Positions 6,516-60,858 of a DNA stretch of 64,000 nt are shown piece by piece. The first letter of the stretch is position 1; every line of letters begins with the position of its first letter. The DNA lies in assembly GCF_047607405.1 (NCBI RefSeq), contig NZ_JASGDA010000088.1:2341-66340 (forward strand), given 5' to 3'. Under the pieces are notes generated by a model. It worked only from the letters and a program-made list of their open reading frames with translations. It had not been told where the DNA came from and made no database searches. The stretch comes from Acidovorax sp. (lineage in GTDB: Bacteria; Pseudomonadota; Gammaproteobacteria; Burkholderiales; Burkholderiaceae_C). Both the position numbers and the translations under genes were made by a program.

Positions 6516-6568
6516 AAAAATGATAGCTGCTAGCACCCGACCCATAAGCGCTAGAGGCCAATTTGACT
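6516..6568 (+). repeat. GATAGCTG-hairpin-AGGCCAATTTGA repeat, copy A
   Basis: Sequence AAAAATGATAGCTGCTAGCACCCGACCCATAAGCGCTAGAGGCCAATTTGACTC. It lies between convergent bamD and the MBL hydrolase gene, and its end abuts the TTA stop codon at 6570. Confidence 0.85.
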
Positions 6569-6569
6569 C

Positions 6570-7676
6570 TTATTTCTGCAGCCGCCACCAGCGGCTGCCC
6601 TCCTGCGGCGCGTTCATGTCCACGCGCTCGCCCATCAGGGGCGTGGCCACGCGCACGCCGCGCTCGGCGGCGTAGCGCAGCACCTGCTCGAACGGGTCGT
6701 CCCAGGCGTGCATCGCCAGGTCGAACGTGCCGTTGTGGATGGGCAGCAGCCAGCGCCCGCGCAGGTCCTGGTGCGCCTGCACGGTTTCGGGCGGGTGCAT
6801 GTGGACGTAGGGCCACTGCGCGTTGTAGGCGCCGGTTTCGATCAGCGTCAGGTCGAAAGGGCCGAAACGCTGGCCGATCTCGGCAAAGCCCTCGAAGTAG
6901 CCGCTGTCGCCGCTGAAGAACAGGCGAAAGGCGTCGTCCTGGATGACCCACGAGCCCCACAGCGTGCGGTTGCCGTCGGTGAGGCTGCGGCCCGAGAAGT
7001 GCTGCGTGGGCGTGAGGGTGAGTTTCAGGCCCTCCACCTCGGTGCCCTGCCACCAGTCGAACTGCGCAATCTTGCCCTGCGGCACGCCCCAGTCCACCAG
7101 CCGGTCGCCCACGCCCAGCGGGGCGAGGAACTGCTGCACCTTGCCCGCCAGCTGCCGGATGGCGGCGTGGTCGAGGTGGTCGTAGTGGTCGTAGTGGTCG
7201 TGCGACAGGATCACGGCGCGGATGGGCGGCAGTTCGTCGATGCCGATGGGCGGCGCATGGAAGCGCTTGGGGCCCATGAACTGCACGGGCGCGGCACGGT
7301 CGCTGAACACCGGGTCGGTCAGCCACCACTGGCCGCGCAGCTTCATCAGCAGCGTGGAGTGGCCCAGGCGGTACAGGCTGCGGTCGGGCGCGGCGTCCAG
7401 GTCGGCGCGGGTCAGGCGCTGGATGGGTATGGGCGACGGGGGCACGGTGCCTGCGGGCTTGTTGAACAAAAAGTCCCACCACACGCGCAGCGTGGATTCG
7501 GGCATGTCGCCGGGGCCGGGCGGGCGCGGGTTATGAAAGCGCCCTTCGTGCGACTGGGGGGATGCGGCGTAGTCGCCGATAGGGGGTTGCAGCATGGCGT
7601 AGGTGGCCCCGGCGATGAGTACAACGAGGGAAAGCCCGCCGACGAGGCGGGCAGCGGATGCAAAACGCACGTTCAA
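6570..7676 (-). CDS. MBL-fold metallo-hydrolase (NAPE-PLD-like)
   Basis: It has the SHDHYDH metal-binding motif, an N-terminal TM/signal segment, and a complete 368-aa ORF. Confidence 0.8.
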   Translation of the reverse strand: MNVRFASAARLVGGLSLVVLIAGATYAMLQPPIGDYAASPQSHEGRFHNPRPPGPGDMPESTLRVWWDFLFNKPAGTVPPSPIPIQRLTRADLDAAPDRSLYRLGHSTLLMKLRGQWWLTDPVFSDRAAPVQFMGPKRFHAPPIGIDELPPIRAVILSHDHYDHYDHLDHAAIRQLAGKVQQFLAPLGVGDRLVDWGVPQGKIAQFDWWQGTEVEGLKLTLTPTQHFSGRSLTDGNRTLWGSWVIQDDAFRLFFSGDSGYFEGFAEIGQRFGPFDLTLIETGAYNAQWPYVHMHPPETVQAHQDLRGRWLLPIHNGTFDLAMHAWDDPFEQVLRYAAERGVRVATPLMGERVDMNAPQEGSRWWRLQK

Positions 7677-7685
7677 CCGCGCGCC

Positions 7686-8603
7686 TTATGCGCCCAGGTG
7701 CTTCTTGTAGAACGGCGCAAGCTTTGCCACCGCCTTGTCGGTGGCCTCGGGCTGGTCGTACAGGTCGTAGTGGGTGGCGCCATCGACGACGTAGAGGTCT
7801 TTCTCGCCCTTCACGCGCTCGTACAACTCCCGCCCGTCCTTCATCGAGCCGAACGCGCCAGGCACGCTGCCGGTGATGATCTGGATGGGCTGCACCAGCA
7901 GCTCTTCGACCAGGTGGAAGGCATCGAAGGCCAGCACGCTCGCCAGGCTGGTGAAGCGCAGCTTGTTGGGCGCGCAGGCGTTCTGGCCGCGCGGGGTGCG
8001 GTAGTACTCCACGGCCTGGATGTGATCGACATCGTTCATGCCCGCCTGCTCGCGCTCCCGCGCGCTGTTGGGGATCCAGGGGGTGACCAGCGGCTCGGCC
8101 CCGCGCGCCTCGGCGGTGCGCTGCTTGCCCACGTTCTCCAGCATGGCGGCAGCGCCGTAGCTGCGGTACAGCTTGCCGATGTTGGCGCCGACCACGGAGC
8201 CGACGGCCTTGATGCGATGCTCGGTCATGGCAGCGTTCACCGCGTAGCCGCCGCCCGCGCACACGCCCAGCACGCCGATCTTTTCTTCGTCCACATAGGG
8301 GAGCGTCACCAGGTAGTCCACCGCGCAGCGCACGTCTTCCACGCGCGTCGCGGGGTCTTCGATGTAGCGCGGCTCGCCGCCGCTTTCGCCCTGGAACGAG
8401 GCGTCGAAGGCGATCGCCACGAAGCCCTGCGCGGCCAGCTTGCCCGCATACAGGCCCGCCGTCTGGCCCTTGCAGCTGCTGCCAGGGTGTACGCAGACGA
8501 TGGCGGGGTACTGCTTGACGGCGTCGAAGCCCGGGGGCAGGTACAACTCGGCGGCCACCTCCCAGGTGCGGTTCTTGAAAGTGACGGATTGCTTTTGGCT
8601 CAT
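7686..8603 (-). CDS. alpha/beta hydrolase (dienelactone-hydrolase-like)
   Basis: It has a GVCAGG nucleophile elbow and an alpha/beta-hydrolase-like sequence. The start was set at MSQKQSV, preceded by AAGGAAAG. Confidence 0.75.
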   Translation of the reverse strand: MSQKQSVTFKNRTWEVAAELYLPPGFDAVKQYPAIVCVHPGSSCKGQTAGLYAGKLAAQGFVAIAFDASFQGESGGEPRYIEDPATRVEDVRCAVDYLVTLPYVDEEKIGVLGVCAGGGYAVNAAMTEHRIKAVGSVVGANIGKLYRSYGAAAMLENVGKQRTAEARGAEPLVTPWIPNSAREREQAGMNDVDHIQAVEYYRTPRGQNACAPNKLRFTSLASVLAFDAFHLVEELLVQPIQIITGSVPGAFGSMKDGRELYERVKGEKDLYVVDGATHYDLYDQPEATDKAVAKLAPFYKKHLGA

Positions 8604-8716
8604 GCTGTCTTTCCTTGGCTCAATGAATGGGATGGACGCCACTTTAAATGGCCCAAGACGTATGATCCATACATTAGAGTACGCTATTTCATCGCCATCG
8701 TACGGATTTATCGCCC

Positions 8717-9634
8717 ATGGACCCGCTTTCCGACGTTCTCTCCCTGCTGCAGCCGCGCAGCCAGTACTACGCGGGCTTCGACGCGGCGGGCGACTGGTCT
8801 TTCGACTTTCCGCCGCATGAAGGCATCAAGTTCACCGCCGTGGTGCGCGGCACCTGCTGGGGCATGGCCGACGGGCTGACCGCGCCGGTGCGCTTCGAGG
8901 CCGGGGACTGCTACCTGCTCAACAGCGGGCGGCGCTTCGTGCTGTCGTCCGACCCGGCCCTGCCGCCGCAGGACCCGGCCCTGGTCCTGGACGCCGCCGC
9001 CCGCGAAGGCATCGCGGTACACAACGGCGGCGGCGAGGTGCTCCTCATCAGCGGGCGCTTCGACTTCTCGGGCCACCATGCCGCCGTGCTGTTCGACGCG
9101 CTGCCGCCCATGATCCACATCCCCAGCGCATCGGCCCAGGCCGGGGTGCTGCGCTGGGCGCTGGAGCAATTGACCAGCGAGCTGCGCCAGCAGCAACCGG
9201 GCGGCACGCTCATGTCCACGCACCTGGCGCACCTGATGCTGGTGCAGGCGCTGCGGCTGTTCCTGAGCGCGCACGGCGACGCGCCCCGGGGCTGGTTCCT
9301 GGCCCTGACCGACCGGCAGATCAGCCCCGCCATCGGCGCCATCCACGCCCAGCCCGACCGCGCCTGGACGCTGGAGCAACTGGCCCGCATCGCAGGCGTC
9401 TCGCGCACGGTGTTCGCGCAGCGCTTCAAAGCGCTGGTGGGTAGCACGGTGATGGACTACCTGACGCGCTGGCGCATGCTGCTGGCCGCCGACCGCCTGC
9501 GCCGGGGCGGGGAGAAGGTGTCGTCGATCGCGTTTTCGCTGGGGTACGAGTCGGAAAGCTCGTTCAGCGCGGCGTTCAAGCGGACGATGGCGTGTTCGCC
9601 CACGCAGTACCGCAGGCAGGTTGCCGGGGGTTAG
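8717..9634 (+). CDS. AraC family transcriptional regulator (cupin N-domain)
   Basis: The C-terminal AraC HTH reads SIAFSLGYESESSFSAAFKR. It is divergent from the hydrolase gene. Confidence 0.85.
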   Translation: MDPLSDVLSLLQPRSQYYAGFDAAGDWSFDFPPHEGIKFTAVVRGTCWGMADGLTAPVRFEAGDCYLLNSGRRFVLSSDPALPPQDPALVLDAAAREGIAVHNGGGEVLLISGRFDFSGHHAAVLFDALPPMIHIPSASAQAGVLRWALEQLTSELRQQQPGGTLMSTHLAHLMLVQALRLFLSAHGDAPRGWFLALTDRQISPAIGAIHAQPDRAWTLEQLARIAGVSRTVFAQRFKALVGSTVMDYLTRWRMLLAADRLRRGGEKVSSIAFSLGYESESSFSAAFKRTMACSPTQYRRQVAGG

Positions 9635-9638
9635 ACCT

Positions 9639-9887
9639 ATGGATCAGAAAATTCGCTTCCCGCTCGTGAGCGTTGGCGTCTTCCTCTGCGTTGCGGCGCT
9701 GAGCCTGCTGGTATGGCAGGTATCCGAATCGCACTGTGCTTTCGGATTTGGCGGGTTTCAATGCAATGGATGGGCCAGCGGGTGGAGCGGTTTCCTGTTC
9801 GCCTGGTCGCTTCTCGCCCTGGTGCTGGTTCCAGGCGCCCTTGGCGTTGCCGTCTGGCGCATGGTGCGCTGGTACCGCAGCGGGTGA
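9639..9887 (+). CDS. hypothetical small membrane protein (two predicted TM segments)
   Basis: It is an ORF starting MDQKIRFPLVSVGVFLCVAALSLLVW with a second hydrophobic stretch. I recognise no family. The local GC is lower than the surroundings. Confidence 0.4.
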   Translation: MDQKIRFPLVSVGVFLCVAALSLLVWQVSESHCAFGFGGFQCNGWASGWSGFLFAWSLLALVLVPGALGVAVWRMVRWYRSG

Positions 9888-9896
9888 GCCAGAGTT

Positions 9897-9953
9897 TCAA
9901 GCCTTTTTGCCCTCTGGCGCTTATCCATAAAGCACCAGGCGCTATGATTTTTG
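9897..9953 (-). repeat. GATAGC-hairpin repeat, copy B (variant)
   Basis: The minus strand reads AAAAATCATAGCGCCTGGTGCTTTATGGATAAGCGCCAGAGGGCAAAAAGGCTTGA. It lies between convergent genes. Confidence 0.75.
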
Positions 9954-9961
9954 ATGAAATC

Positions 9962-10216
9962 TCAGGGGCTTGGCAGCCGATCGTCGTCGGCCGGAGCTTG
10001 CCCGCCGTCGCGGCGCAGAAAGGCCAGTGCGGCGTCCAGGTCTCCCATGCGGCCGCGCTCCAGAAAATAATCCGCCGTTTTCATCGCGGCCAGCTTTTCG
10101 GCCACCGCACTGACGATGAATTGGTTGAGGGTGGAGCCATCTTCACGCGCCACCTGCTCGGCTCCAGCCTTCAGCGACAAAGGCAGACGCAAGGCGTAGT
10201 TGCTTTGGGTTCCCAT
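9962..10216 (-). CDS. ribbon-helix-helix (HicB/Arc-type) putative antitoxin
   Basis: MGTQSNYALRLPLSLKAGAEQVAREDGSTLNQFIVSAVAEKLAA is an RHH pattern. An AAGGAG RBS precedes it. It starts 2 nt after the PIN gene stop codon. Confidence 0.7.
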   Translation of the reverse strand: MGTQSNYALRLPLSLKAGAEQVAREDGSTLNQFIVSAVAEKLAAMKTADYFLERGRMGDLDAALAFLRRDGGQAPADDDRLPSP

Positions 10217-10218
10217 GA

Positions 10219-10647
10219 TCAAGCTCCTTGAAAGTATTGCGCTGGCCCGATGACCGGGATACCAAAGCGCGCTGCCTGCGGCAGAAAGTCGCGCTGGTTG
10301 AACGTCACCAGCGTGACGGGCTGCCCCTGCCCCAGACCGTTCACGGCCAGCTCCAGCACCATGTCGTCGTTGGGGTCGCGCAGTTGGGGCCGCCACAAGA
10401 ATTGGATGGATACGGGCACCAGCACTCGGGCCAAAACGTGAAGCGTGTTGCGCACATCCTCAGGCTGCGCACCGGCTGCCGCCAACTGCTCAGGGCGCAT
10501 CAGAACCGCCTCGTATTCCATGAACAAGGGCACGCTGCACAACACGGGCACCTGGCGCAAAAGCGCCCGGCGCAGCAACTCGGCAGAGGCCCCTGCCGGG
10601 CTGCGCACGGCTGCTACCAGTACATTCGTGTCCAGCACATAATTCAT
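10219..10647 (-). CDS. PIN-domain putative toxin (PIN_3-like)
   Basis: It starts MNYVLDTNVLVAAV and has acidic PIN residues (D6, E44, D93-D94 region). Confidence 0.75.
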   Translation of the reverse strand: MNYVLDTNVLVAAVRSPAGASAELLRRALLRQVPVLCSVPLFMEYEAVLMRPEQLAAAGAQPEDVRNTLHVLARVLVPVSIQFLWRPQLRDPNDDMVLELAVNGLGQGQPVTLVTFNQRDFLPQAARFGIPVIGPAQYFQGA

Positions 10648-10693
10648 ATTGCCAGCAATATATCACTGGCTTCTTGAATTTGCAGCTGGAGGG

Positions 10694-13318
<2,625 letters not shown>

Positions 13319-14684: not shown

Positions 14685-14697
14685 ACGGGGGCGAATC

Positions 14698-17791: not shown

Positions 17792-17808
17792 AAAGAAGGG
17801 GCGAACCC

Positions 17809-21136: not shown

Positions 21137-21154
21137 CTCCCGCCGTGATACTTC

Positions 21155-21207
21155 TTTTTTGATAGCTACTAGTGCTTGCTGCATAAGCGTTGGAAGCCAA
21201 TTTGGCT
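21155..21207 (+). repeat. GATAGCTG-hairpin repeat, copy D
   Basis: Sequence TTTTTTGATAGCTACTAGTGCTTGCTGCATAAGCGTTGGAAGCCAATTTGGCT. Confidence 0.8.
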
Positions 21208-21237
21208 TAAATTCTTTTCATTCTCGGAGGCAACATC

Positions 21238-30431: not shown

Positions 30432-30452
30432 ACCGACTCTTTATCGACTCGT

Positions 30453-30494
30453 GAAAATAAACAAGGGCTAGCGCCTTTTCAAGCCCTAGCCCTT
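30453..30494 (-). terminator. terminator-like hairpin between rplT and pheS
   Basis: The minus strand has AAGGGCTAG, a 14-nt loop, CTAGCCCTT, then GTTTATTTTC. It ends 21 nt before the pheS ATG. Confidence 0.5.
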
Positions 30495-30524
30495 GCTGTT
30501 ATTGCGCAAGCAGCTATCAAAACG
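30463..30524 (-). repeat. GATAGCTG repeat, copy F (variant 3' half)
   Basis: The minus strand reads TTTTGATAGCTGCTTGCGCAATAACAGCAAGGGCTAGGGCTTGAAAAGGCGCTAGCCCTT. Confidence 0.65.
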
Positions 30525-30542
30525 ATAGCCGCTATCGTGAAC

Positions 30543-37100: not shown

Positions 37101-38161
37101 GAGACGGTGAACCCCGTCAGCCCCGCCTTGGGCTTGGAGCCGCGCCCCGTCGCGCCCTCGTCGCGGATCTCGCCGCCCGCGCCGGTGGACGCACCCGGGA
37201 AGGGCGAGATGGCCGTGGGGTGGTTGTGCGTTTCCACCTTCATCAGCACATGGTGGGTTGCACTACTCTTTTGATAGCTGCTTGCGCCCGTCCCATCTGC
37301 GCTAGAGGCCATTTTGGCTATGAATCTCTCCACCGTATGGCCTTCCATGATGGAGGCGTTGTCCGAATACGCCACCACCGTGTGCTGCGGCGCGAGTTGG
37401 TGCGTGTTGCGGATCATGCCGAACAGCGATTTGTCCTGCGCCACGCCGTCGATGGTGAACTGGGCGTTGAAGATCTTGTGGCGGCAGTGCTCGCTGTTGG
37501 CCTGGGCGAACATCATCAGCTCCACGTCCGTGGGGTTGCGCGCCAGGGCGGTGAAGGCGTTGACCAGGTAGTCGATTTCGTCGTCGGCCAGCGCCAGGCC
37601 GAAGCGGGCGTTGGCGGCTTCCAAAGCCGTGCGGCCACCACCGAGAACGTTGACGTGCTCCATGGGCGCGGGTTGCAGCTCGGTGAACAGCGCAGCGGCG
37701 GCGGCGCGCTCCATCACCACGGATTCGGTCATGCGGTCGTGCAGCAGCGCGGCGACCTGGGCCTTTTGCCCGTCGTCCAGTTCAGGCGTCTTGCCCAGCA
37801 GGCCGGATTTGAGAGCGACGCGGTATTCGGTAATGCGCTCCACACGGCGGATGGCGATGCCGCAGTTGCGCGCAATATCGGTGGCCTTGCTGGCCCAGGG
37901 CGACAGCGTGCCCAGGCGTGGCGTGACGATGATGGCCGCGCCATCCGCCGGGCCTGTGTAGGGTTCGCCATAGGCCAGCAGCGCGGACAGCCGCTCCTGC
38001 TGGGCGGGCGTGGGGGCCGCGTCCGTCACCACCAGATGCACGAAGCGCGCCGCGATGCCCTCGATCTTGGGGTGGATGGCTGCCAGGGCGGGTTGAAGCT
38101 GCTGGGCGCGGAAGGCGCTGAGGGCATTGCCGCCCTCGAAGGTGCTGATGTGGTGGGTCAC
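34142..38161 (-). CDS. purL: phosphoribosylformylglycinamidine synthase (large single-chain form)
   Basis: It is a 1339-aa ORF with [36 protein letters not shown] and a C-terminal glutaminase domain GVCNGCQM. Confidence 0.97.
37266..37322 (+). repeat. GATAGCTG-hairpin repeat, copy G, inside the purL CDS (antisense to purL)
   Basis: Sequence CTTTTGATAGCTGCTTGCGCCCGTCCCATCTGCGCTAGAGGCCATTTTGGCTATGA. It is read by purL as [19 protein letters not shown]. Confidence 0.85.
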
Positions 38162-38288: not shown

Positions 38289-38516
38289 ATGGCCCGCAAC
38301 ATCACCTTCACCGCCGACGAGGCCCTGATCGAAGCCGCCCGCGAAGCCGCCCGTGCCGATAACACCACGCTCAACGAGCAGTTCCGCCTGTGGCTGGAGA
38401 GCTATGCGCGCAAGCGGCAGGCGGACAGGGCGATGGAGACGCTGGCGCGCATCCGCAGCTACGCCAGTTCCGGCGGCCTGAAGATGACCCGCGAGGAAAT
38501 GAATGAGCGCCGCTGA
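38289..38516 (+). CDS. RHH-type antitoxin (VapB-like)
   Basis: It starts MARNITFTADEALIEAAREAARADNTTLNEQFRLWLESYA. It overlaps the downstream PIN gene by 14 nt. Confidence 0.7.
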   Translation: MARNITFTADEALIEAAREAARADNTTLNEQFRLWLESYARKRQADRAMETLARIRSYASSGGLKMTREEMNERR

Positions 38517-38937
38517 TTTCCTCGACAGCAATGTCGTGGTCTATGCCTTTGACGCGGCGGGCGGCGAGAAAAGCAGCATCGCCAGCGGCATCATCAACAC
38601 CGCCTTGCGCCAGGGCAACGCCATCATCAGCTTTCAGGTCGTGCAGGAAACGCTGAACGTCATAGGCCGCAAATTCAGCCGCGTCGCCACCCCCAAGGAT
38701 CGCAAGGTCGCGCTGGAACAAGTCCTCGTGCCGCTCTGGCGCATCCACCCCAGCCCCGCGCTGTACGCACGCGGGCTGGGCATCCAGGAGCGCTACGGCT
38801 TCAGCTTCTACGACAGCCTGATCGTCGCCGCCGCGCTGGAAGGCGGCTGCACGCGGCTGCTCAGCGAAGACATGCAGCACGGGCAGCAGATCGAGGGGCT
38901 GCGGGTGGAGAACCCGTTTCTCGGCACCCGCGCCTGA
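38503..38937 (+). CDS. vapC: PIN-domain toxin (VapC-like)
   Basis: It has FLDSNVVVYAFD and SFYDSLIVAAA, which carry PIN acidic residues. Confidence 0.8.
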   Translation: MSAADFLDSNVVVYAFDAAGGEKSSIASGIINTALRQGNAIISFQVVQETLNVIGRKFSRVATPKDRKVALEQVLVPLWRIHPSPALYARGLGIQERYGFSFYDSLIVAAALEGGCTRLLSEDMQHGQQIEGLRVENPFLGTRA

Positions 38938-39827: not shown

Positions 39828-42419
39828 ATGACCGAAATCCATGCCCTGCGCGATGCCTACCGCGCCGACAAGGCCGCCATCCTGGCGGCGATGCAGTCCA
39901 CGGGCGCATCCACGCGCGGCATCCATGGCGTGCTCAAGCGCCTGTCCGCGCTGGCCGACCGCCTGCTGTGTACCTTATGGCAGCGCGCCGGGCTGCCCGC
40001 CGACCTGGCCCTGGTCGCAGTGGGCGGCTTTGGGCGGGCGCAACTTTTCCCCTACTCCGATGTCGATGTGCTGCTGCTGCTGCCAGGCGACGCCGCGCCC
40101 GAGACAGGCAGCGCGCTGCGCACGCAGCTCGAAGGCTTCATCGGCAGCTGCTGGGACGCGGGGCTGGAGATCGGCTCCAGCGTGCGCACCGTGGCGGAGT
40201 GCCTGGCCGAGAGCGCGGCCGACGTGACGGTGCAGACCTCGCTGCTCGAAGCGCGCCAGGTGTGCGGCAGCGCCGCGCTGTTTGCCGAATTCCAGCACCG
40301 CTACCGCGCGCAGATGGACCCGCAGGCTTTCCTGGTGGCCAAGACGCTGGAGATGCGCCAGCGCCACAACAAGTACGAGAACACGCCCTACGCGCTGGAG
40401 CCCAACTGCAAGGAATCCCCCGGCGGCCTGCGCGACCTGCAGACCATCCTGTGGGTGGCGCGCGCAGCGGGCCTGGGCCGCGACTGGAAGGAACTGGCTG
40501 CCAGCGGCATGGCGACGGCCTTCGAGGTGCGCCAGATAGAGCGCAACGAGGCCCTGCTGTTCCTCATCCGCGCCCGCCTGCACGCGGCGGCGGGGCGGCA
40601 TGAAGACCGACTGGTGTTCGATTTGCAAACGGCAGTGGCCGAAACCTTCGGCTACCGCTCGCTCTCGCCCGACGGCAAGCGCCTGCCCATGCGCGCCAGC
40701 GAAAGCCTGATGCGCCGCTACTACTGGGCGGCCAAGGCCGTGTCGCAGCTCGCGCAAATCCTGCTGCTCAACATCGAAGAGCGGCTGAATCCTTCGACAC
40801 ACGAGCCGCGCCCCATCAACGAGCGCTTCTTCGAGAAAGCGGGCCTCATCGAGGTCGCCAGCGACGACCTGTACCGGCACGACCCGCACGCCATCCTGGA
40901 AACCTTTCTGCTCTACCAGACCACGGTGGGCCTCAAGGACCTGTCCGCCCGCACCCTGCGCGCCCTGTACAACGCGCGCGGCGTGATGGACGCCGCCTTC
41001 CGCCGCGACCCGGTGAACCGCGCCAACTTCATGCGCATCCTGCAGCAGCCCGCGGGCATCACGCACGCCATGCGGCTGATGAACCAGACCTCGGTGCTGG
41101 GACGCTACCTGTGGCCCTTCCGCCGCATCGTGGGGCAGATGCAGCACGACCTGTTCCACGTCTATACGGTGGACCAGCACACCCTGATGGTGCTGCGCAA
41201 CGTGCGCCGCTTCTTCATGGCCGAGCACGCGCACGAATACCCATTCTGCTCGCAGCTCGCGGGCGGGTGGGACAAGCCTTACATCCTGTACGTGGCCGCG
41301 CTGTTCCACGACATCGGCAAGGGGCGCGGCGGCGACCACTCCGTCATCGGCGCCGACGAAGTGCGGCGCTTTTGCCGCCAGCACGGCGTGCCGCGCGAGG
41401 ACGCGCAGCTCATCGAGTTCCTGGTGCGCGAGCACCTCATCATGAGCACCGTGGCGCAAAAGCAGGACCTGACCGACCCCGAGGTGATCGGCAACTTTGC
41501 CCGGCGCGTGGGCAACGAGCGCTACCTGACCGCGCTGTACCTGCTCACCGTGGCCGACATCCGCGGCACCAGCCCCAAGGTGTGGAACGCCTGGAAGGGC
41601 AAGCTGCTCGAAGACCTGTACCGCGCCACGCTGCGCACCCTGGGCGGGCGGGCGCCCGACGCCGCCGCCGAGATCGAGGCGCGCAAGCGCGAGGCGCAGG
41701 TGCAGCTCGCCCTGTCCGCGCAGCCGCACGAGTCGCACAAGGCGCTGTGGGACACGCTGGACGTGAGCTACTTCATGCGCCACGAGGCGGCAGACATCGC
41801 CTGGCACACGCGCCACCTCTCGCGCCACGTCGGCACGCCCAAGCCCGTGGTGCGCGCGCGCCAGTCGCTGGCAGGCGACGGGCTGCAAGTCATGGTCTAT
41901 GCGGCCGACCAGCCCGACCTGTTCGCCCGCATCTGCGGCTACTTCGACCGGGCGGGCTTTTCCATCCTGGACGCGCGCGTACACACCGCCAACAACGGCT
42001 ACGCGCTCGACACCTTCCAGGTCGTGGCGCCGTCGCAACCCGGCCATTACCGCGAACTCACGCACATGGTCGAGAGCGACCTGGTGCAGACCATCGAGGC
42101 CGGCGGCCCGCTGCCCGAGCCAGCGCGCAAGCGCCTGTCGCGCCGGGTCAAGAGCTTTCCCGTCGCGCCGCGCGTCACGCTGCGGCCCGACGAAAAGGCC
42201 CAGCGCTGGCTGCTCGCCATCTCCGCCAGCGACCGGGCGGGCCTGCTCTACCTGGTGGCGCGCATCCTGGCGCGGCACCGGCTGAACGTGCAGCTCGCCA
42301 AGGTCAGCACCCTGGGCGAGCGGGTGGAAGACACCTTCCTGGTGCAAGGGCCGGAGCTGCAGAACAACGCCCGGCAGATCCAGATCGAGACCGAGCTGCT
42401 GCGGGAGCTTTCAGCCTGA
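39828..42419 (+). CDS. glnD: [protein-PII] uridylyltransferase / uridylyl-removing enzyme
   Basis: It has a nucleotidyltransferase domain ([23 protein letters not shown]), an HD domain ([14 protein letters not shown]) and two ACT domains. An alternative GTG start is at 39792. Confidence 0.93.
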
Positions 42420-42426
42420 ATACTCC

Positions 42427-42479
42427 TGTTTTGATAGCTGTTAGTGCTTTCTGGATAAGCGCTAGAGGCTGATTTGACC
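42427..42479 (+). repeat. GATAGCTG-hairpin repeat, copy H
   Basis: Sequence TTTTGATAGCTGTTAGTGCTTTCTGGATAAGCGCTAGAGGCTGATTTGACCA. It starts 8 nt after the glnD stop and ends at the def stop codon (TTA at 42481). Confidence 0.88.
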
Positions 42480-42480
42480 A

Positions 42481-43020
42481 TTAATCGTCTTCGGCGGCGC
42501 TGATGCCCGGGAACAGCACCTCGGTAAACCCGAACTGCGTGAAGTCGCGCACCCGCATCGGGTACAGCTTGCCGATGAGGTGGTCGCACTCGTGCTGCAC
42601 CACGCGGGCGTGAAAGCCGTCCACCGTGCGGTCGATGGCATCGCCATACGGGTCGAACCCGGTGTAGCGGATGCGCGACCAGCGCGGCACCTTGCCGCGC
42701 AGGCCGGGCACCGAGAGGCAGCCTTCCCAGTCCTCTTCTTCCTCATCGCCCAGCGGCGTGATGACGGGGTTGCACAGCACCGTGGGCGGCACCAGGGGCC
42801 GGTCGGGGTAGCGCGGGTTGCGGTCGCCGGAGCCGAAGATCACCAGCTGCAAGTCCACGCCAATCTGCGGCGCCGCCAGGCCCGCGCCGTTGACGGCCCG
42901 CATGGTCTCGAACATGTCGCGCACCAGCAGGTGCAGCGCGTCGGTATCGAACGCGGTCACGGGCTGGGCCACGCGCAGCAGGCGCGGGTCGCCCATCTTC
43001 AGGATGGTGTGGACGGTCAT
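42481..43020 (-). CDS. def: peptide deformylase
   Basis: It has [16 protein letters not shown] and HECDHL motifs. The start was trimmed to [12 protein letters not shown]. Confidence 0.95.
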
Positions 43021-43474: not shown

Positions 43475-43512
43475 AGAAAAACAAAACCCGCCATGCGCGA
43501 ACACATGGCGGG
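43473..43512 (-). terminator. intrinsic terminator after tRNA-Asn copy 1 (the hairpin also faces ybaN)
   Basis: The minus strand has CCCGCCATG, an 8-nt loop, CATGGCGGG, then TTTTGTTTTTCTTC. Confidence 0.7.
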
Positions 43513-43520
43513 TTGGTGAG

Positions 43521-43596
43521 TGGCTCCTCAACCTGGGCTCGAACCAGGGACCTACGGATTAACAGTCCGGCGCTCTACCGACTGAGCTATTGAGGA
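43521..43596 (-). tRNA. tRNA-Asn (anticodon GUU), copy 1
   Basis: The minus strand reads TCCTCAATAGCTCAGTCGGTAGAGCGCCGGACTGTTAATCCGTAGGTCCCTGGTTCGAGCCCAGGTTGAGGAGCCA. Confidence 0.92.
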
Positions 43597-43653: not shown

Positions 43654-43729
43654 TGGCTCCTCAACCTGGGCTCGAACCAGGGACCTACGGATTAACAGTC
43701 CGGCGCTCTACCGACTGAGCTATTGAGGA
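43654..43729 (-). tRNA. tRNA-Asn (anticodon GUU), copy 2
   Basis: Its 76 nt are identical to copy 1. Confidence 0.92.
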
Positions 43730-48856: not shown

Positions 48857-48886
48857 CGTGTGCTCCTTGGGTCTGGTATGGGATTC

Positions 48887-49720
48887 TTACTTGTGCAGGC
48901 CGCGCTCGTCCGGCTCGTCGGTGGACGTGCTGATGACGCTGGTGTGCAGCCCCTTGGCCTTGCGCCAGGCATAGACGCCGTAGCCCGAAAGGCCGTAGCC
49001 CACGAACACGGCGAACAGCACCGTGGGCGGGTGGATGTTGATGACGGCGATGCCCAGTGCAATGAGCACGATGGCGGCGAAGGGCACGCTCTTTTTCATC
49101 TGCACGTCCTTGAAGCTGTAGAACGGCACGTTCGTCACCATGGTCAGGCCCGCGTAGAGCGTGAAGGCGAACATGATCCAGGTGATCTGCGTCCAGGTCA
49201 GCCACCCATCCTCGCCGGGGCGCACGCCCAGTTCGGTCATCAGCCAGATGAAGCCCGCGACCAGCGCGGCAGCGGCGGGCGACGGCAGGCCCTGGAAGTA
49301 GCGCTTGTCCACCACGCCCGTGTTCACGTTGAAGCGCGCCAGCCGCAGCGCCGCGCACGAGCAATAGACAAAGGCCGCTATCCAGCCCCAGCGGCCCAGG
49401 CCGTGCAGCGACCAGATGTACGCGATGAGCGCGGGCGCGGCGCCAAAGGACACCATGTCGGACAGCGAATCCATCTGCTCGCCGAAGGCGCTTTGCGTGT
49501 TGGTCATGCGCGCCACGCGCCCGTCCAGGCTGTCGAGCACCATGGCGCAGAACACGCCCACGGCGGCGGAGTCGAAGCGCCCGTTCATCGCCATCACGAT
49601 GGCGTAGAAGCCGCCGAACAGCGCCGCCAGCGTGAACAGGTTGGGCAGTATGTAGATGCCCTTGCGGCGCTTGCGCACCACCACGCCGGGGTTCTCGGCG
49701 GGATCGTCTCCGTCATGCAT
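48887..49720 (-). CDS. pssA: CDP-diacylglycerol--serine O-phosphatidyltransferase
   Basis: It has the CDP-alcohol phosphatidyltransferase motif DSLDGRVAR...D..SD. The ATG at 49720 is preferred over the TTG at 49723. Confidence 0.9.
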   Translation of the reverse strand: MHDGDDPAENPGVVVRKRRKGIYILPNLFTLAALFGGFYAIVMAMNGRFDSAAVGVFCAMVLDSLDGRVARMTNTQSAFGEQMDSLSDMVSFGAAPALIAYIWSLHGLGRWGWIAAFVYCSCAALRLARFNVNTGVVDKRYFQGLPSPAAAALVAGFIWLMTELGVRPGEDGWLTWTQITWIMFAFTLYAGLTMVTNVPFYSFKDVQMKKSVPFAAIVLIALGIAVINIHPPTVLFAVFVGYGLSGYGVYAWRKAKGLHTSVISTSTDEPDERGLHK

Positions 49721-49770
49721 CAAATCGGCCTCCAGCGCTTATCTGGCAAGCGCAAGCAGCTATCAAATTC
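49721..49770 (-). repeat. GATAGCTG-hairpin repeat, copy I (abuts the pssA start)
   Basis: The minus strand reads AATTTGATAGCTGCTTGCGCTTGCCAGATAAGCGCTGGAGGCCGATTTG, then ATG. Confidence 0.88.
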
Positions 49771-49818
49771 ATAGTTTCTGGCGGCCCCGGCGCTGCGCGG
49801 GGCAAAGGGCCAATTTTA
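49771..49818 (+). repeat. diverged repeat copy, head-to-head with copy I
   Basis: Sequence ATAGTTTCTGGCGGCCCCGGCGCTGCGCGGGGCAAAGGGCCAATTTTA. It retains the ATAG head and the GGGCCAATTT tail. Confidence 0.45.
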
Positions 49819-49825
49819 GCCGCCC

Positions 49826-49858
49826 CCAGAAAAGGAAAAGGCCACCGGAGTGGCCTTT
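49826..49858 (-). terminator. intrinsic terminator after ilvC
   Basis: The minus strand has AAAGGCCAC, loop TCCG, GTGGCCTTT, then TCCTTTTCTGG. Confidence 0.78.
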
Positions 49859-49879
49859 CGCTCGATACGCCCGGGGCGA

Positions 49880-51583
<1,704 letters not shown>

Positions 51584-53602: not shown

Positions 53603-53634
53603 ACTCTGCGGCGCTCTCCTTTGCACGGCACCAC

Positions 53635-54668: not shown

Positions 54669-54682
54669 CCTGCCCCCACTGC

Positions 54683-55555: not shown

Positions 55556-55562
55556 CACTGGA

Positions 55563-56075: not shown

Positions 56076-56665
56076 CCCGCCCCGCTTTCTCCGTTTGCGT
56101 CTATTGCGGCTCGCGCCCCGGCGAGGACCCAGCGTTCGCCGACGCCGCCCGGGCCGTGGGCCGATGGATTGGCGTACACGGCGGGCAACTGGTCTATGGC
56201 GGCGGCCGCAGCGGCCTCATGGGCCTGGTGGCCGAGGCCACGCGCGAGGCCGGGGGCCGCGTGGTGGGCGTGATCCCGCAGGCGCTGGTGGACAGGGAAC
56301 TGGCCAACCGCCAGTGCGATGAACTGCACATCGTGCAGACCATGCACGAGCGCAAGGCGCTGATGGCCGAGCGCAGCGACGCCTTCCTGGCGCTGCCGGG
56401 CGGCATCGGCACCTTCGAGGAACTGTTCGAGGTCTGGACGTGGCGCCAGCTCGGCTACCACGACAAGCCGCTGGGCCTGCTCAACGTGGCGGGCTATTAC
56501 GACGGCCTGCTGTCCTTTCTGCAAGGCAGCGTGGCCAGCGGCTTTCTGGGCGAATGGCAGATGGAACTGCTGCGCGCGGGCAGCGACGCAGCCGCCCTGC
56601 TCACGGCCCTGGTGCAGGACGCGGGCGCGAATGCCGAAACATCCGCGCTGCGGAAAGTGATTTAG
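56072..56665 (+). CDS. LOG family protein (TIGR00730-type nucleotide phosphoribohydrolase)
   Basis: It has VCVYCGS, GGGRSGLMG and PGGIGTFEELFEV motifs. Confidence 0.88.
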   Translation: MTRPAFSVCVYCGSRPGEDPAFADAARAVGRWIGVHGGQLVYGGGRSGLMGLVAEATREAGGRVVGVIPQALVDRELANRQCDELHIVQTMHERKALMAERSDAFLALPGGIGTFEELFEVWTWRQLGYHDKPLGLLNVAGYYDGLLSFLQGSVASGFLGEWQMELLRAGSDAAALLTALVQDAGANAETSALRKVI

Positions 56666-56673
56666 ATCGCTCT

Positions 56674-56725
56674 ATTTTTGATAGCTGACAGCGCACGCCG
56701 GATAAGCGCCAGCGGCCAAAAACAC
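56674..56725 (+). repeat. GATAGCTG-hairpin repeat, copy K
   Basis: Sequence TTTTTGATAGCTGACAGCGCACGCCGGATAAGCGCCAGCGGCCAAAAACAC. It ends at the glnB stop codon (TCA at 56726). Confidence 0.8.
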
Positions 56726-58755
<2,030 letters not shown>

Positions 58756-58787
58756 ACGGGAGCGGGGATGGGGAAAGTTCGCGTGAA

Positions 58788-59183
58788 TTATGCGGGCGAT
58801 GGTCGCGCGTCCCACGGATCCAGCAGTTGGACTCCGCACGCGGCGAAATCACCGCCGTTGCGTGTCATCAGCACCCGACCGTGGGCCAGCGCCGAGGCCG
58901 CGATGATGGCGTCCGGCAGCTTGATGCGGTGCTGCTCGCGCAACTGGATGGTTTGCACGATCACCGCTTCCGCGAGTGGGATTTCCTGCATGTGCGACAG
59001 CAGGTTCTGGGTGAGTTGCCGCGAAGCGGGCGTGTGGCCCGCCCAGCCCATGACTTCAATGCGGGTGATGGACGAATAGCTGGCCCCGGCGACGACCGCG
59101 TTTTCAAAGCAAGCCCTGGCAGCGGGCGGCAACTGCCCGTTGATGTAGTAGATGAGGATGTTGCTGTCAACCAGCACGCTCAT
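58788..59183 (-). CDS. vapC: PIN-domain toxin (VapC-like)
   Basis: It reads MSVLVDSNILIYYING...LPDAIIAASALAHG. Confidence 0.8.
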   Translation of the reverse strand: MSVLVDSNILIYYINGQLPPAARACFENAVVAGASYSSITRIEVMGWAGHTPASRQLTQNLLSHMQEIPLAEAVIVQTIQLREQHRIKLPDAIIAASALAHGRVLMTRNGGDFAACGVQLLDPWDARPSPA

Positions 59184-59434
59184 GGCCGCCCGACCCATTC
59201 GCCGCGCAGGGCCGCCAGATCGGCGTCGATGGCCTGCACGGAATGCACGGGTTCCACACAACTCCAGGCGTTGGACAAGGCTTGCCTGCGCGCATCGCCC
59301 GCTGCGGTGCGCACAGGCGCATCTTCCTGCGCCAGCGGCAGGATGATGACTTCGCCACGCTGGCGGCGCAAATGCTCAGGCACCTGCACGGCGTCGGGCA
59401 GGTGGTCGTAGATTTCACGCAGTATGGTTGTCAT
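59180..59434 (-). CDS. putative antitoxin (AbrB/VapB-like)
   Basis: It starts MTTILREIYDHLPDAVQVPEHLRRQRGEVIILPL. A 4-nt ATGA overlap links it to the PIN gene. Confidence 0.6.
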   Translation of the reverse strand: MTTILREIYDHLPDAVQVPEHLRRQRGEVIILPLAQEDAPVRTAAGDARRQALSNAWSCVEPVHSVQAIDADLAALRGEWVGRP

Positions 59435-59496
59435 CCGTTCGCTCCATTCGTGGCGACTGTGGTTCGATTGTGCGGCAAAGCGCTGCCTGTGGCACG

Positions 59497-60795
59497 ATGG
59501 CCCGCCCCGCACTCCGGCCCCGACACACCTTGCCCGCCTACGAACTGCGCATCGCGGATGCCCCCGCCTCCATCGACGCCGCCGCCTGGAACGCCCTGCT
59601 CGCGCGGCAAAGCCAGCCCACGCCCTTCATGCGGCACGAGTACCTGGCCGCCCTGCACGAGAGCGGCAGCGCCACGCCGCGCACCGGCTGGGTGCCGTGC
59701 TTCATGACGCTGTGGCAGGGCAGCGAGTTGATCGCCGCCTGCCCGCTGTACCTCAAGAGCCATTCCTACGGCGAATACGTGTTCGACTGGGCCTGGGCCA
59801 GCGCCCACGAGCAGCACGGCGTGCCCTACTACCCCAAGGCCGTGGTGGCCGTGCCCTTCACGCCCGTGCCGGGCACGCGGCTCATGGCGCGCGACGGCCA
59901 GGCGCGGGCGCTGCTGGTGCAGGCACTGCGGCAATGGTGCGGGCAAGAGGGCGTGTCGTCCGCCCACGTGCTCTTTGCCAGCGACGATGATGTGCAGACC
60001 TGCTCCGACCAGCAGCTCATGCTGCGCCACACCGTGCAATTCCACTGGCAGAACATGGCCCCCACGCTCCCCGCTGCGCGTGGTTCGCTGCCCCCCGAGG
60101 GGGCGCTCGCTGCCTTGGGGCGGCCCGGCGGCATCTCGGGCTACCGCGACTTCGAGCACTTCCTCGCCAGCCAGTCGCAGGACAAGCGCAAGAAGATCCG
60201 CCAGGAGCGCCGCCGCGTGGCGGACGCGGGCGTCGGCTTCCGCTGGGCGCGGGGTGCGGACATCCGCGCGGCGGACTGGGACTTCTTCTACCGCTGCTAC
60301 GAGCGCACCTACCTGGAGCACGGCAACCCGCCCTACCTCACGCGGGACTTCTTCGCGCGCATGGCGGCGCACCTGCCCGAGGCGTGGCTGCTGTTCATCG
60401 CCGAGCGCGGCGGACGGCCGATTGCTAGCAGTTTGATAGCTGTCAGCACCCTTCCATCAAGCGCTGAAGGCCAAAAAGACCATGAAACGCTGGTGGCCTA
60501 TGGCCGCTACTGGGGGGCGCTGGAGCGGGTGGACTGCCTGCACTTCGAGGCGTGCTACTACCAGCCTTTGCAGTGGTGCATCACCCACGGCGCGCAGCGC
60601 TTCGAGGGCGGCGCGCAGGGTGAGCACAAGATGGCCCGCGCCCTGCTGCCCGTGCAGGCCGCCAGCGCGCACTGGCTGGCGCACCCGGCGTTCGCCGACG
60701 CGGTGCAGCGCTTCCTGGCGCGCGAGGGCGAGGGCGTGCAGGACTACCTGCAGGCGCTGCGGTCGCGCAGCCCGTTCAAGCCGCCTGTGGCCTGA
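59497..60795 (+). CDS. FemAB-like GNAT family protein (DUF482 / PF04339-type)
   Basis: It has PFMRHEYLAALHESG, KSHSYGEYVFDWAWA, YGRYWG, LHFEACYY and GAQGEHKMARA motifs. Confidence 0.8.
   Translation: MARPALRPRHTLPAYELRIADAPASIDAAAWNALLARQSQPTPFMRHEYLAALHESGSATPRTGWVPCFMTLWQGSELIAACPLYLKSHSYGEYVFDWAWASAHEQHGVPYYPKAVVAVPFTPVPGTRLMARDGQARALLVQALRQWCGQEGVSSAHVLFASDDDVQTCSDQQLMLRHTVQFHWQNMAPTLPAARGSLPPEGALAALGRPGGISGYRDFEHFLASQSQDKRKKIRQERRRVADAGVGFRWARGADIRAADWDFFYRCYERTYLEHGNPPYLTRDFFARMAAHLPEAWLLFIAERGGRPIASSLIAVSTLPSSAEGQKDHETLVAYGRYWGALERVDCLHFEACYYQPLQWCITHGAQRFEGGAQGEHKMARALLPVQAASAHWLAHPAFADAVQRFLAREGEGVQDYLQALRSRSPFKPPVA
60430..60482 (+). repeat. GATAGCTG-hairpin repeat, copy M, inside the FemAB-like CDS (sense)
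   Basis: Sequence GTTTGATAGCTGTCAGCACCCTTCCATCAAGCGCTGAAGGCCAAAAAGACCATGA. It is read as SLIAVSTLPSSAEGQKDH. Confidence 0.85.
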
Positions 60796-60804
60796 GTTTG
60801 CTTT

Positions 60805-60858
60805 GTTTTTGATAGCTGCCAGCGCTTGCCCATCAAGCGCTGGAGGCCGATTGGACCA
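60805..60858 (+). repeat. GATAGCTG-hairpin repeat, copy N
   Basis: Sequence TTTTTGATAGCTGCCAGCGCTTGCCCATCAAGCGCTGGAGGCCGATTGGACCA. It has a perfect 10-bp stem CCAGCGCTTG/CAAGCGCTGG and ends at the ppa stop codon (TTA at 60859). Confidence 0.9.

Follow-up and report, generated by a model that had tools for sequence, protein, structure and literature searches.

A family of palindromic interspersed DNA in Comamonadaceae with REP-like and RPE-like behavior

REP/BIME elements of Enterobacteria and Pseudomonas, including the REPIN-RAYT system, are short imperfect palindromes whose 5' foot carries a conserved box. They occur in hundreds of copies per genome, are extragenic with enrichment after genes and between convergent genes, lack target duplication and have likely effects at mRNA 3' ends. 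Rickettsia palindromic elements (RPE) are palindromic repeats that occupy intergenic sites as well as in-frame sites within conserved protein-coding genes, where they add a surface peptide; old copies are kept at orthologous sites and no transposase is known. MITEs (Correia/NEMIS of Neisseria, ERIC/IRU) are small non-autonomous repeats at gene ends that can be co-transcribed and can act as a source of terminators, stop codons or Shine-Dalgarno-like sequences. IS200/IS605-family derivatives (palindrome-associated transposable elements) have a sub-terminal hairpin and lack target-site duplications (TSD) and terminal inverted repeats (TIR).

These traits recur in a repeat that we analyzed in a 64-kb stretch of DNA (the window) and that, extrapolating from its density there, probably has hundreds of copies per genome. 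Unlike REP/BIME, the element has neither a GTAG nor a CGTC tag, its copies are single rather than inverted doublets, it is asymmetric because its two conserved unpaired boxes differ, no RAYT turned up, it also lies in frame within genes, and its one consensus is common to a whole bacterial family, not a species group. RPE are unrelated in sequence, belong to a different host clade, and at 100-150 bp add 30-50 residues, whereas the element of ~68 bp adds 3-11. It differs from MITEs in having no TIR or TSD and an internal, not terminal, palindrome, and from IS200/IS605 derivatives in having one hairpin instead of separate left- and right-end hairpins; the 1.6 Mb of DNA sampled showed neither TnpA nor TnpB. 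Nonetheless, TTGAT is conserved directly 5' of the unit and ATTTGA is repeated directly at both ends, a pattern explicable by a single guide-type recognition. ISDra2 inserts 3' of TTGAT, a parallel that serves as a lead only. We favor, with a probability of roughly 0.6, a short, non-autonomous palindromic interspersed family specific to Comamonadaceae, with REP elements and RPE as its closest behavioral analogues.

A sequence-only reading had proposed an abundant REP/MITE-like repeat of no named family with constant spacing between its boxes. Family and spacing were both borne out by a pattern scan of the window, where GATAGCTG-N25-AGGCC with at most two mismatches gave 9 matches versus 1.76 expected; none of 100 shuffles reached 9. 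A covariance model built from the copies, a check suggested by that reading, was run unfiltered over the 64 kb and returned 10 full copies (63.7-79.2 bits), a single degenerate one and a doubtful half-copy. These are listed with model scores and, in brackets, other evidence; gene contexts are from our own codon-model gene calls.

6507..6576, plus strand: full copy, 74.6 bits (fold, Pfam), between convergent bamD (5685-6482, plus) and an MBL-fold hydrolase gene (6570-7676, minus); left flank an A-run, left arm the variant GCACCC, which pairs solely as G-U, on the minus strand.
9892..9961, minus strand: full copy with variant boxes (CATAGCGC ... AGGGC), 63.7 bits (Pfam), between a convergent AraC-type regulator gene and VapBC-like pair.
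21146..21215, plus strand: full copy, 75.1 bits (Pfam), sense, between co-directional GntR regulator and aldehyde dehydrogenase genes.
30464..30533, minus strand: doubtful half-copy (TTTTGATAGCTGCTTGCGCAA only), 14.7 bits, E = 0.88, in the rplT-pheS leader; matches in the 5' half only, then an unrelated canonical terminator-like hairpin.
37258..37327, plus strand: full copy inside purL, 71.7 bits (Pfam FGAR-AT domains, alignments, ortholog).
42418..42487, plus strand: full copy, 79.2 bits (gene calls, comparison with L031), taking up the whole 61-nt gap between convergent glnD and a deformylase-like gene; its terminal positions contain the stop codons of both.
49710..49779, minus strand: full copy, 72.2 bits (Pfam), sense, between co-directional ilvC and a CDP-alcohol phosphatidyltransferase gene; its GGAGG and ATG fall at the start of the gene downstream, and a canonical terminator lies upstream of the copy at 49836-49859.
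51509..51578, plus strand: full copy, 72.5 bits (adjoining Rfam ilvH, Pfam), antisense to transcription, between an acetolactate synthase large-subunit gene and the ilvH leader RNA.
56665..56734, plus strand: full copy, 64.5 bits, filling the 60-nt gap between a convergent LOG-family gene and glnB.
57973..58041, plus strand: degenerate copy inside nadE, 28.2 bits, E = 9e-4 (Pfam, PDB 4f4h alignment).
60420..60489, plus strand: full copy inside a FemAB_like (PF04339) gene, 65.6 bits (Pfam).
60796..60865, plus strand: full copy, 78.3 bits (Pfam), spanning all of the 63 nt that separate ppa from the convergent FemAB_like gene.

The word GATAGCTG occurs nine times in the window, eight times in model-detected copies and once, at 30511, in the doubtful half-copy. 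The latter had been called a clear copy (30463, minus strand), a status at odds with its score and one-sided match. Among the partial copies proposed earlier, that at 57981 stands (28.2 bits, orthologs in L065 and L130) and four do not: 51462 is the ilvH RNA motif (RF02993, 94.6 bits), 11861 is native alaS coding sequence, and 29284 and 49771 are below detection. No Rfam family matches the element, nor was its sequence found in the literature searched. The palindromic interspersed repeat family is real and apparently undescribed.

Each unit is composed of TTTGATAGCTG, a 9-bp stem with a 7-nt loop, and AGAGGCCAATTTGA after the second stem arm; the consensus order is (T/A-run)TTTGATAGCTG, arm CTAGCGCTT, loop, arm AAGCGCTAG and AGAGGCC-AATTTGA-C..AAA, and A/T tracts on the right side are spaced by roughly one turn of the helix. 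At 43% GC versus 66% in the flanks, copies are AT-rich for the host genome. Pattern scanning located at least 113 further loci, and the named genera all belong to Comamonadaceae. Acidovorax, Giesbergeria and Ottowia share one consensus, including positions left free by the search pattern. Copies are related by common descent from one sequence, not by convergence. Because the window copies all differ from one another, with no identical pair, recent mobility of the element is unproven, and the family may be a fossil by now.

Placement follows a real rule concerning the right end of the element: in 79 of 109 copies (p = 3e-6), this end faces the 3' end of a gene and abuts its stop codon. Of the 106 intergenic copies, 37 are flanked by convergent genes and 8 by divergent ones. 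Within the window, the element occupies 5 of 7 convergent junctions versus 3 of 33 co-directional ones (p = 0.0015), in agreement with the earlier observation that copies fill convergent gaps. Orientation is biased 2:1 in co-directional contexts (41 versus 20, p = 0.01). The polarity of the upstream gene, earlier thought to be shared by most copies, is not the rule, with 63 of 114 copies conforming (p = 0.3) when strand bias was recorded as that reading had advised.

The description of copies as intergenic was incomplete, as those at 37266, 60430 and 57981 lie in frame within purL, the FemAB-like gene and nadE, respectively, according to Pfam and PDB alignments; even essential genes thus carry the element. 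In purL (34142-38161, minus strand), the copy is read as 18 residues, and alignment with Salmonella PurL and relatives showed the relatives to be 8 aa shorter. The nadE copy lies in the linker that joins the CN-hydrolase domain to the NAD-synthase domain, with a 19-residue reading, and the FemAB_like copy is read as IASSLIAVSTLPSSAEGQKD at a site where the homologues of L132 and L140 are 11 aa shorter. Net gain from genic copies is just 3-11 residues because the element ends overlay ancestral codons. Overall, ORFs span 27 of 180 copies in four frames, an upper bound of 15% translated. A bona fide copy (52.9-60 bits) also resides in the gcuF (orfF) cassette of class 1 integrons, which encodes DUF1010 (PF06231); translated in minus-strand frame 2, the element matches positions 1-21 of the DUF1010 profile. 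The cassette is larger than the element, with a ~75 nt spacer and then an attC site, and the C-terminal half of DUF1010 is attC translation that is missing from genomic copies. Comamonadaceae genomes contain several DUF1010 ORF copies each, in Alicycliphilus within a chromosomal integron array. The gcuF cassette is widespread.

Individual sites have seen addition, loss or rearrangement of copies during Comamonadaceae evolution. Orthologous sites in different genera retain copies; the purL copy has an ortholog in Acidovorax MAG locus L031 and the degenerate nadE copy in L065, L130 and L126. The element is absent from L051 and L065 at sites filled in relatives or the window, and L017 and L096 have it in opposite orientations at one orthologous site. 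The glnB-LOG junction of L190 is occupied by a symmetric variant that contains a nested hairpin; in L179, L122 and L130, canonical terminator hairpins replace the element there. Only 11 matches, nearly all in the closest relatives, were found in 642 kb around nadE of relatives. Orthologous copies (L020, L097, L112, L055) have near-identical boxes and diverged loops, a comparison that overestimates the strength of purifying selection since most pairs were found via a box-fixing pattern. Near-identical boxes beside diverged loops are also expected of a host-protein binding site.

Selection on an RNA or single-strand structure with a set polarity had been argued from a covarying stem and G-U wobble. 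An element of this kind, kept by selection on pairing, might be a terminator or 3'-end stabilizer needed after many genes. It would account for location straight after stop codons, the co-directional orientation bias, replacement of relatives' canonical terminators, and consensus folds of -19.7 kcal/mol on the plus strand (z = -2.3) and -17.7 on the minus strand (z = -3.1). Furthermore, left A-runs, which become a U-run after the hairpin on an incoming transcript, flank 18 of 79 copies where a transcript can use them and 0 of 38 elsewhere (p = 6e-4). Pairing itself, however, does not appear to be selected. The inner 6 bp of the stem, with its GCGCTT/AAGCGC core, are essentially invariant, and change in the outer three pairs is mostly confined to the left side. 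The covariation statistics called for earlier were marginal: 89.4% of cells are paired versus 88.1% after shuffling, and the 41 double-change cells (26 expected) fall nearly all at one pair. Wobble occurs on both strands, with similar totals of G-U (76) and A-C (56), and the copy at 6516 pairs on the minus strand only whereas that at 42427 pairs on the plus strand only. Both loop orientations occur (GATGGAT, 11; ATCCATC, 8) irrespective of gene context, and conservation is highest in the unpaired boxes. Single window copies are no more stable than shuffles (z -1.7 to +0.7), most copies form a hairpin without a U-tract, and a terminator scan detected none. With up to 15% of copies translated in four frames and 8 between divergent genes, an RNA element is unlikely. 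Constraint acts at the DNA level, on sequence that includes unpaired boxes and a flipping loop, and is not RNA covariation.

Conservation of sequence rather than pairing is also what a dispersed duplex or cruciform binding site for a conserved nucleoid-associated, topological or regulatory host protein would predict, with purifying selection at each locus and mobility secondary. The single consensus across all genera, drift of loops and flanks around retained boxes and arms, and helically phased A/T tracts fit this possibility, which we nevertheless hold to be as improbable as the RNA element. No candidate protein is known, the IHF consensus WATCAANNNNTTR does not fit as read from the sequence, and ascertainment by the search pattern inflates box conservation. 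Site function does not readily explain copies in an integron cassette or in the coding loops of purL, nadE and FemAB, density differs strongly between lineages, and close relatives have empty, inverted or replaced sites without obvious consequence. Somewhat less probable still is a bona fide REP/REPIN population mobilized by a single-copy RAYT (REP-associated tyrosine transposase) elsewhere in the genome. The single imperfect palindrome, a conserved 5' box ATAG one base off GTAG, enrichment in extragenic convergent junctions and lack of TSD, as predicted for Y1 enzymes, resemble REP. However, of 134 copies only 5 have GTAG and 23 CTAC near the hairpin foot, copies are singletons without REPIN-like inverted doublets or clusters of identical sequences, and many are genic and in frame. 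An E. coli RayT query, the transposase search raised earlier, gave no significant tblastn match in 900 kb. As claimed before, the window lacks a transposase or RAYT-like gene among genes assignable by Pfam, which covered nearly all called genes and left a few small ORFs without a match.

Returning to a non-autonomous interspersed family, neither a TSD nor TIR at element ends was found, and the element would have spread without duplicating its target or requiring terminal inverted repeats. Candidate mechanisms are a trans-acting single-strand (HUH/Y1-type) enzyme recognizing the hairpin and TTGATAGCTG box, and microhomology-guided copying, by template switch or gene conversion, off existing copies. 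The copying route is favored by the "replacement-type" junctions of the copies within purL, nadE and the FemAB-like gene. For the host, the usual effect would be a stable stem-loop ending the upstream mRNA, with termination possible in the minority of copies that acquired a U-run, allowing the element to stand where relatives have canonical terminators. We regard the element as palindromic selfish DNA of a new, REP/RPE-like family. Its copies survive where harm is small, just after stop codons, chiefly in convergent gaps, and in frame in tolerant protein loops, and some have probably been co-opted as mRNA 3'-end hairpins.

The repeat is a new family of a known kind, palindromic and REP/RPE-like, and it is both real and widespread. 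Its existence, first claimed in a sequence-only reading, was confirmed in the window by nine matches to GATAGCTG-N25-AGGCC with at most two mismatches, against 1.76 expected. A covariance model (A5, R1) built from ten copies and searched without filters likewise returned ten full copies at 63.7–79.2 bits, along with one that is degenerate (57973, 28.2 bits) and a half-copy at 30464(-) that is doubtful (14.7 bits, E = 0.88). Other sites first listed as partial copies were lost: 51462 is an ilvH RNA motif (RF02993, 94.6 bits), 11861 is native alaS coding sequence, and 29284 and 49771 both fall under detection by the model. The ilvH motif (51450-51517, minus strand) lies upstream of the acetolactate synthase small-subunit gene and adjoins repeat copy 51509-51578. 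The window is a core-genome stretch of about 66% GC carrying clpS, dnaE, bamD, alaS, pheST, thrS, purL, glnD, ilvIHC, glnB, nadE and ppa. It also holds three VapBC-like toxin-antitoxin pairs in 64 kb (9962-10647, minus; 38289-38937, plus; 58788-59434, minus), each a small ORF with a PIN-domain protein; the third lies within a segment of about 700 bp, between nadE and a FemAB-like gene, that is missing in the closest relative, L190.

When 180 copies were aligned in register on an invariant ATAGC, the consensus, about 68 bp long, read caatTgCTactaATTTGATAGCTG-CTAGCGCTT-gttggAt-AAGCGCTAG-AGGCCAATTTGaCTtaAAAT, with 43% GC in the element versus 66% in the flanks. Information peaks in three segments: the 5' box (ATAGC, unpaired, 2 bits per position), the GCGCTT/AAGCGC inner stem and the 3' box (AGGCC, also unpaired). 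One consensus holds across all genera, even at positions outside the search pattern. Because rare symmetric variants exist (ATAGCTG-arm-loop-arm-CAGCTAT, in the sampled loci L080, L062 and L190), the sequences suggest a longer perfect palindrome as the ancestor of the common asymmetric form. The left end supplies stop codons in two frames (TGA, TAG), and in five copies the upstream gene ends on the TGA of TTTGATAGC. The right box holds a GGAGG or AGAGG that resembles a Shine-Dalgarno sequence, with TTG or ATG after it, and in copy 49710 both coincide with the start of the downstream gene. Between that copy (49710-49779) and the canonical ilvC terminator (49836-49859), a plus-strand fragment at 49790-49835 resembles the right box (GGGCCAATTTTAGCC) and may be the remnant of a second copy, below model detection.

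RNA covariation and strand polarity, the chief ground for interest in the sequence-only reading, failed on testing. The consensus fold is stable on both strands (-19.7 and -17.7 kcal/mol), and single window copies are no more stable than shuffles. Across 147 model matches, 89.4% of cells were paired versus 88.1% in shuffles, and the inner six pairs are practically invariant. At the outermost pair G is fixed on the right and all four bases occur on the left; real double changes occur at one pair only (UA 62, UG 30, CG 24, other 30). G-U pairs, from which a polarity had been argued, total 76 and A-C pairs 56; the copy at 6516 (copy 6507; arm GCACCC) pairs on the minus strand only and that at 42427 (copy 42418) on the plus strand only. 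The two commonest loops, GATGGAT (11 copies) and ATCCATC (8), are exact reverse complements used independently of gene context, and this flip-flop is the product expected of recombination or template switching inside a DNA palindrome. Tested as a structured RNA family, the repeat shows marginal covariation and no Rfam match at any copy. What is constrained is the DNA sequence and its palindromy, rather than an RNA helix with a set polarity. A CsrA-type GGA loop was rejected, GGA occurring on either strand regardless of which is transcribed.

Several known classes of mobile or repeated DNA were weighed against these features. The repeat resembles REP elements in placement and in the absence of a target-site duplication, and differs from them in tag and doublets. 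Its 5' foot bears GATAGCTG in place of the REP tetranucleotide, the GTAG/CGTC foot tag is not found (GTAG near the left foot in 5 of 134 copies, CTAC in 23 of 134), and there are no inverted doublets of REPIN or BIME type, distinct neighbours lying at least 300 nt apart with one exception; apparent overlapping copies are one palindrome matched on both strands. No transposase was found by Pfam among the window genes it could assign, as had been noted earlier, nor was a RAYT; tblastn with E. coli RayT gave no significant match in 900 kb, and candidates in loci L059 and L003 were spurious, one being the antisense strand of an ABC-F gene. A mobilising single-copy enzyme may lie distant in the genome. 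MITE-like terminal inverted repeats are absent, the element ends not being complementary, and no target-site duplication was convincing; a direct-repeat signal at offset 65 is weak (z = 4.5, identity about 6% in excess) and can be explained by flanking stop codons. A half-element search of 1.6 Mb for a split, large composite or autonomous form gave only a 48-nt hairpin nested in the L190 variant, and a plasmid search for a transposase partner matched five records, uninformative apart from the integron cassette described below. The element also lacks attC organisation (R''/L''-L'/R', RYYYAAC ... GTTRRRY). The other near likeness is to the Rickettsia palindromic elements, which share in-frame genic copies, here in purL, nadE and the FemAB-like gene, and the lack of a known enzyme. 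The resemblance is behavioural only and the repeat is not one of them, because it has no sequence homology to them and occurs in a different clade. In sum, it fails the defining tests of REP/REPIN-RAYT (tag and doublets), MITE, attC, intrinsic terminator and any Rfam family.

Placement was assessed on the calls of a codon-model gene finder that had been trained on the data under study. The 106 intergenic copies comprise 41 co-directional antisense, 20 co-directional sense, 37 convergent and 8 divergent cases. The robust placement rule concerns the right end (AGGCC-AATTTGA): in 79 of 109 copies (p = 3e-6) it faces an opposite-strand gene at its stop codon, and that stop is usually 41–70 nt from the A of ATAGC. 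The earlier rule of the same polarity as the upstream gene is true for just 63 of 114 copies. The association with convergent genes was upheld in the window, where the repeat occupies 5 of 7 convergent junctions against 3 of 33 co-directional ones (p = 0.0015) and none of the 8 divergent. At three junctions the element is the whole 60–63-nt spacer, with both stop codons within its terminal positions. Orientation tied to replication was rejected, copies dividing 62 against 62 with respect to local GC skew; the plus-strand bias in the window (8:2) is not significant (p = 0.11).

Such placement bears on whether the repeat acts at mRNA 3' ends. None of 12 terminator-like sites in 41–61 kb is an element, the hairpin tails are AGGCCAAUUUGA and CAGCUAUCAAA where an intrinsic terminator would have its U-tract, and in most copies the T-run is on the wrong side of the hairpin. 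An A-run in the left flank becomes a U-run 4–8 nt past the hairpin in transcripts that enter at the right end; it is present in 18 of 79 copies with such a transcript (about 23%) and in 0 of 38 others (p = 6e-4), and the element can occupy sites where relatives carry terminators. From these sequence features we take the 3'-end hairpin to be a tolerated side effect and not the family's reason to exist. It appears sometimes co-opted, because the A-run is restricted to suitably placed copies and the element stands at relatives' terminator sites; a co-opted terminator or stabiliser role would apply especially to the strand reading TCAAATTGGCC...CAGCTATC. In the rplT-pheS leader (30440-30540, minus strand), the repeat's 5' half (TTTTGATAGCTGCTTGCGCAA) is fused to a canonical terminator-like hairpin, GGGCTAG ... 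CTAGCCC, with a T-run; this half-copy may be a decayed repeat absorbed into the pheST attenuator. Elsewhere in the window, tandem tRNA-Asn(GTT) genes (43521-43596 and 43654-43729, minus strand) with identical cmscan matches (73 nt) are followed by a strong canonical terminator at 43485-43514.

Roles for the conserved box itself were also considered. A DNA uptake sequence (DUS/USS) was rejected since GATAGCTG is not over-represented outside element copies: all 9 window occurrences lie within copies, the doubtful half-copy at 30511 included. AAGCGCYRG occurs 11 times versus 5 expected, 8 of the 11 within copies. A sigma-70 promoter, TTGATA-N17-GATAAG, was rejected because the putative -10, which would need A2 and T6, always has G as its sixth base, and a scan of 41–61 kb gave no promoter-like sites. 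An IHF site was rejected on sequence, its consensus being absent.

Copies inside genes reveal how the element sits in its target. ORFs run across 27 of the 180 copies from all loci and use four of the six reading frames, some of these gene calls being weak. Copy 37258 is translated as 18 residues of purL (FGAR-AT domains by Pfam), and relatives without it are 8 residues shorter; copy 60420 lies in the FemAB_like protein, which is 11 residues shorter there in L132 and L140; and the degenerate copy 57973 adds 3 residues to the inter-domain linker of nadE relative to PDB 4f4h. The protein always gains less than the element's full length, since the element's terminal ~20 nt lie over ancestral codons. 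For the FemAB-like gene, ATC GCC TGC AGC CTG ATC GGC in the empty allele corresponds to ATT GCT AGC AGT TTG ATA GCT in the filled one; these encode almost identical residues, yet the filled version uses AT-rich codons that fit the consensus, against third positions of about 90% GC in the genome. Ancestral YQK and FVAK of purL likewise coincide with element ends. We cannot account for this overlay by simple insertion, and the junctions suggest microhomology-guided copy-in or a long target preference.

Many copies occupy orthologous positions across genera, with flanks 74–90% identical, and are inherited vertically, because they share private variants. In orthologous sets such as L020, L097, L112 and L055, boxes and arms are identical and loops differ, most pairs having been ascertained by a pattern that fixes the boxes. 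Relatives also differ at single sites: L051 lacks a copy common to L048 and L002, L065 lacks the window's copy 56665, and at the L031 ortholog of copy 42418 the spacer is longer by about 125 bases. At one orthologous intergenic site the element lies in opposite orientations (L017:209-259 versus L096:5397-5447), which implies independent insertion or in-situ inversion of the whole unit. The glnB-LOG junction has the usual form in the window (copy 56665). In L190 (7040-7150, metagenome contig Ga0222427_100217; flanks 91% identical) it has the symmetric ATAGCTG ... CAGCTAT with a 48-nt hairpin (GGCAGTTTCAGGTGCAAAAGTGCCTGAAACTC) nested in the loop, a piece with no second copy in 1.6 Mb of sampled DNA. 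In L179, L122 and L130 the element is absent and a canonical hairpin with T-run stands instead. Clean empty sites could be defined for none of the intergenic copies, orthologous spacers being too diverged to place junctions. A bolder reading goes beyond decaying selfish DNA to a domesticated, family-wide palindromic module: it would spread without a transposase, existing copies serving as the source for homology-guided copy-in (template switching or gene conversion at microhomologies), be kept identical across genera by a conserved host factor, and have replaced canonical intrinsic terminators as the default convergent 3'-end module in Acidovorax-like genomes. We consider this unlikely, at roughly 15%.

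A plasmid search with the consensus matched a 'DUF1010' ORF between dfrA12 and aadA2 in a class 1 integron. The covariance model scores 60 bits on it, and 52.9 bits on the common variant of this gcuF/orfF cassette.

Repeat copies and DUF1010 ORFs in integrons and cassette-like arrays
L118:2986-3055, gcuF cassette repeat copy, class 1 integron of an E. coli plasmid
L202:1339-1408, gcuF cassette repeat copy, class 1 integron of an E. coli plasmid
L120:6001-6291, Alicycliphilus chromosomal integron, DUF1010 ORF with translated attC
L121:2400-9200, Acidovorax sp. YS12, second cassette-like one-directional array of small genes (AcrVA2-like, HNH, DUF488, UDG, DUF1010)

The gcuF/orfF cassette, whose repeat copy is bona fide, is present in 1827 PLSDB plasmids, mostly of clinical Enterobacterales. 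Positions 1-21 of Pfam PF06231 match the minus-strand frame-2 translation of the element. Homologues of the 96-aa ORF occur several per genome in Acidovorax, Alicycliphilus, Simplicispira, Diaphorobacter, Melaminivora, Ottowia, Giesbergeria and Polaromonas; those of Alicycliphilus lie in a chromosomal integron array adjoining the integrase, and the C-terminal half of the ORF is a translated attC site. The attC sites of that array (TCTAAC ... GTTAG) are a separate repeat adjoining the element. By sequence, the DUF1010 profile looks like a translated repeat (positions 1-21) followed by a translated attC (C-terminal part), which argues that DUF1010 is repeat plus attC in translation and not a protein. 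The match also points to a Comamonadaceae origin of the gcuF/orfF cassette, for which the repeat copy is a concrete sequence marker. In the searchable literature, DUF1010 and gcuF appear as annotation labels only. The YS12 array has six repeat copies in 12 kb, all antisense to the ORFs, about three times the window density.

The pattern TGATAGCTR-N16-AAGCGY-N3-RGGCC, scanned over 185,579 species genomes, matched at least 113 stretches, and among the matches listed every named genus belongs to Comamonadaceae.

Named genera with the repeat, among the matches listed
Acidovorax, Paracidovorax, Paenacidovorax, Simplicispira, Ottowia, Giesbergeria
Comamonas, Hydrogenophaga, Diaphorobacter, Curvibacter, Albidiferax/Rhodoferax, Polaromonas

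The nearest sequences to the window are Acidovorax-like, L031 and L190 sharing about 89–91% identity with it. With nhmmer, the window and 113 loci (900 kb) gave 229 matches, about 35 of them the same palindrome on the other strand. Repeat density varies by lineage: one per 5–6 kb in the window, and just 11 matches in the 642 kb that surround nadE in 80 metagenomic relatives, almost every one of them from the closest relatives. Extrapolated from window density, a Comamonadaceae genome probably holds hundreds of copies. No paper with the repeat's sequence or describing such a Comamonadaceae repeat was found in the searchable literature, which is not proof of absence.

Two features lift the repeat above the routine: its replacement-type genic copies and its copy in the gcuF cassette. 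The repeat needs masking or annotation in Comamonadaceae genomes, its translation having already yielded spurious or misleading ORF calls and part of Pfam family DUF1010. Replacement-type junctions, together with the lack of target-site duplication, terminal inverted repeats and transposase, make it a usable system for how palindromes spread. Beyond Rickettsia, the purL and nadE copies give a second clear case of essential genes that carry a palindromic repeat in frame, and such copies bear on how proteins gain loop insertions.
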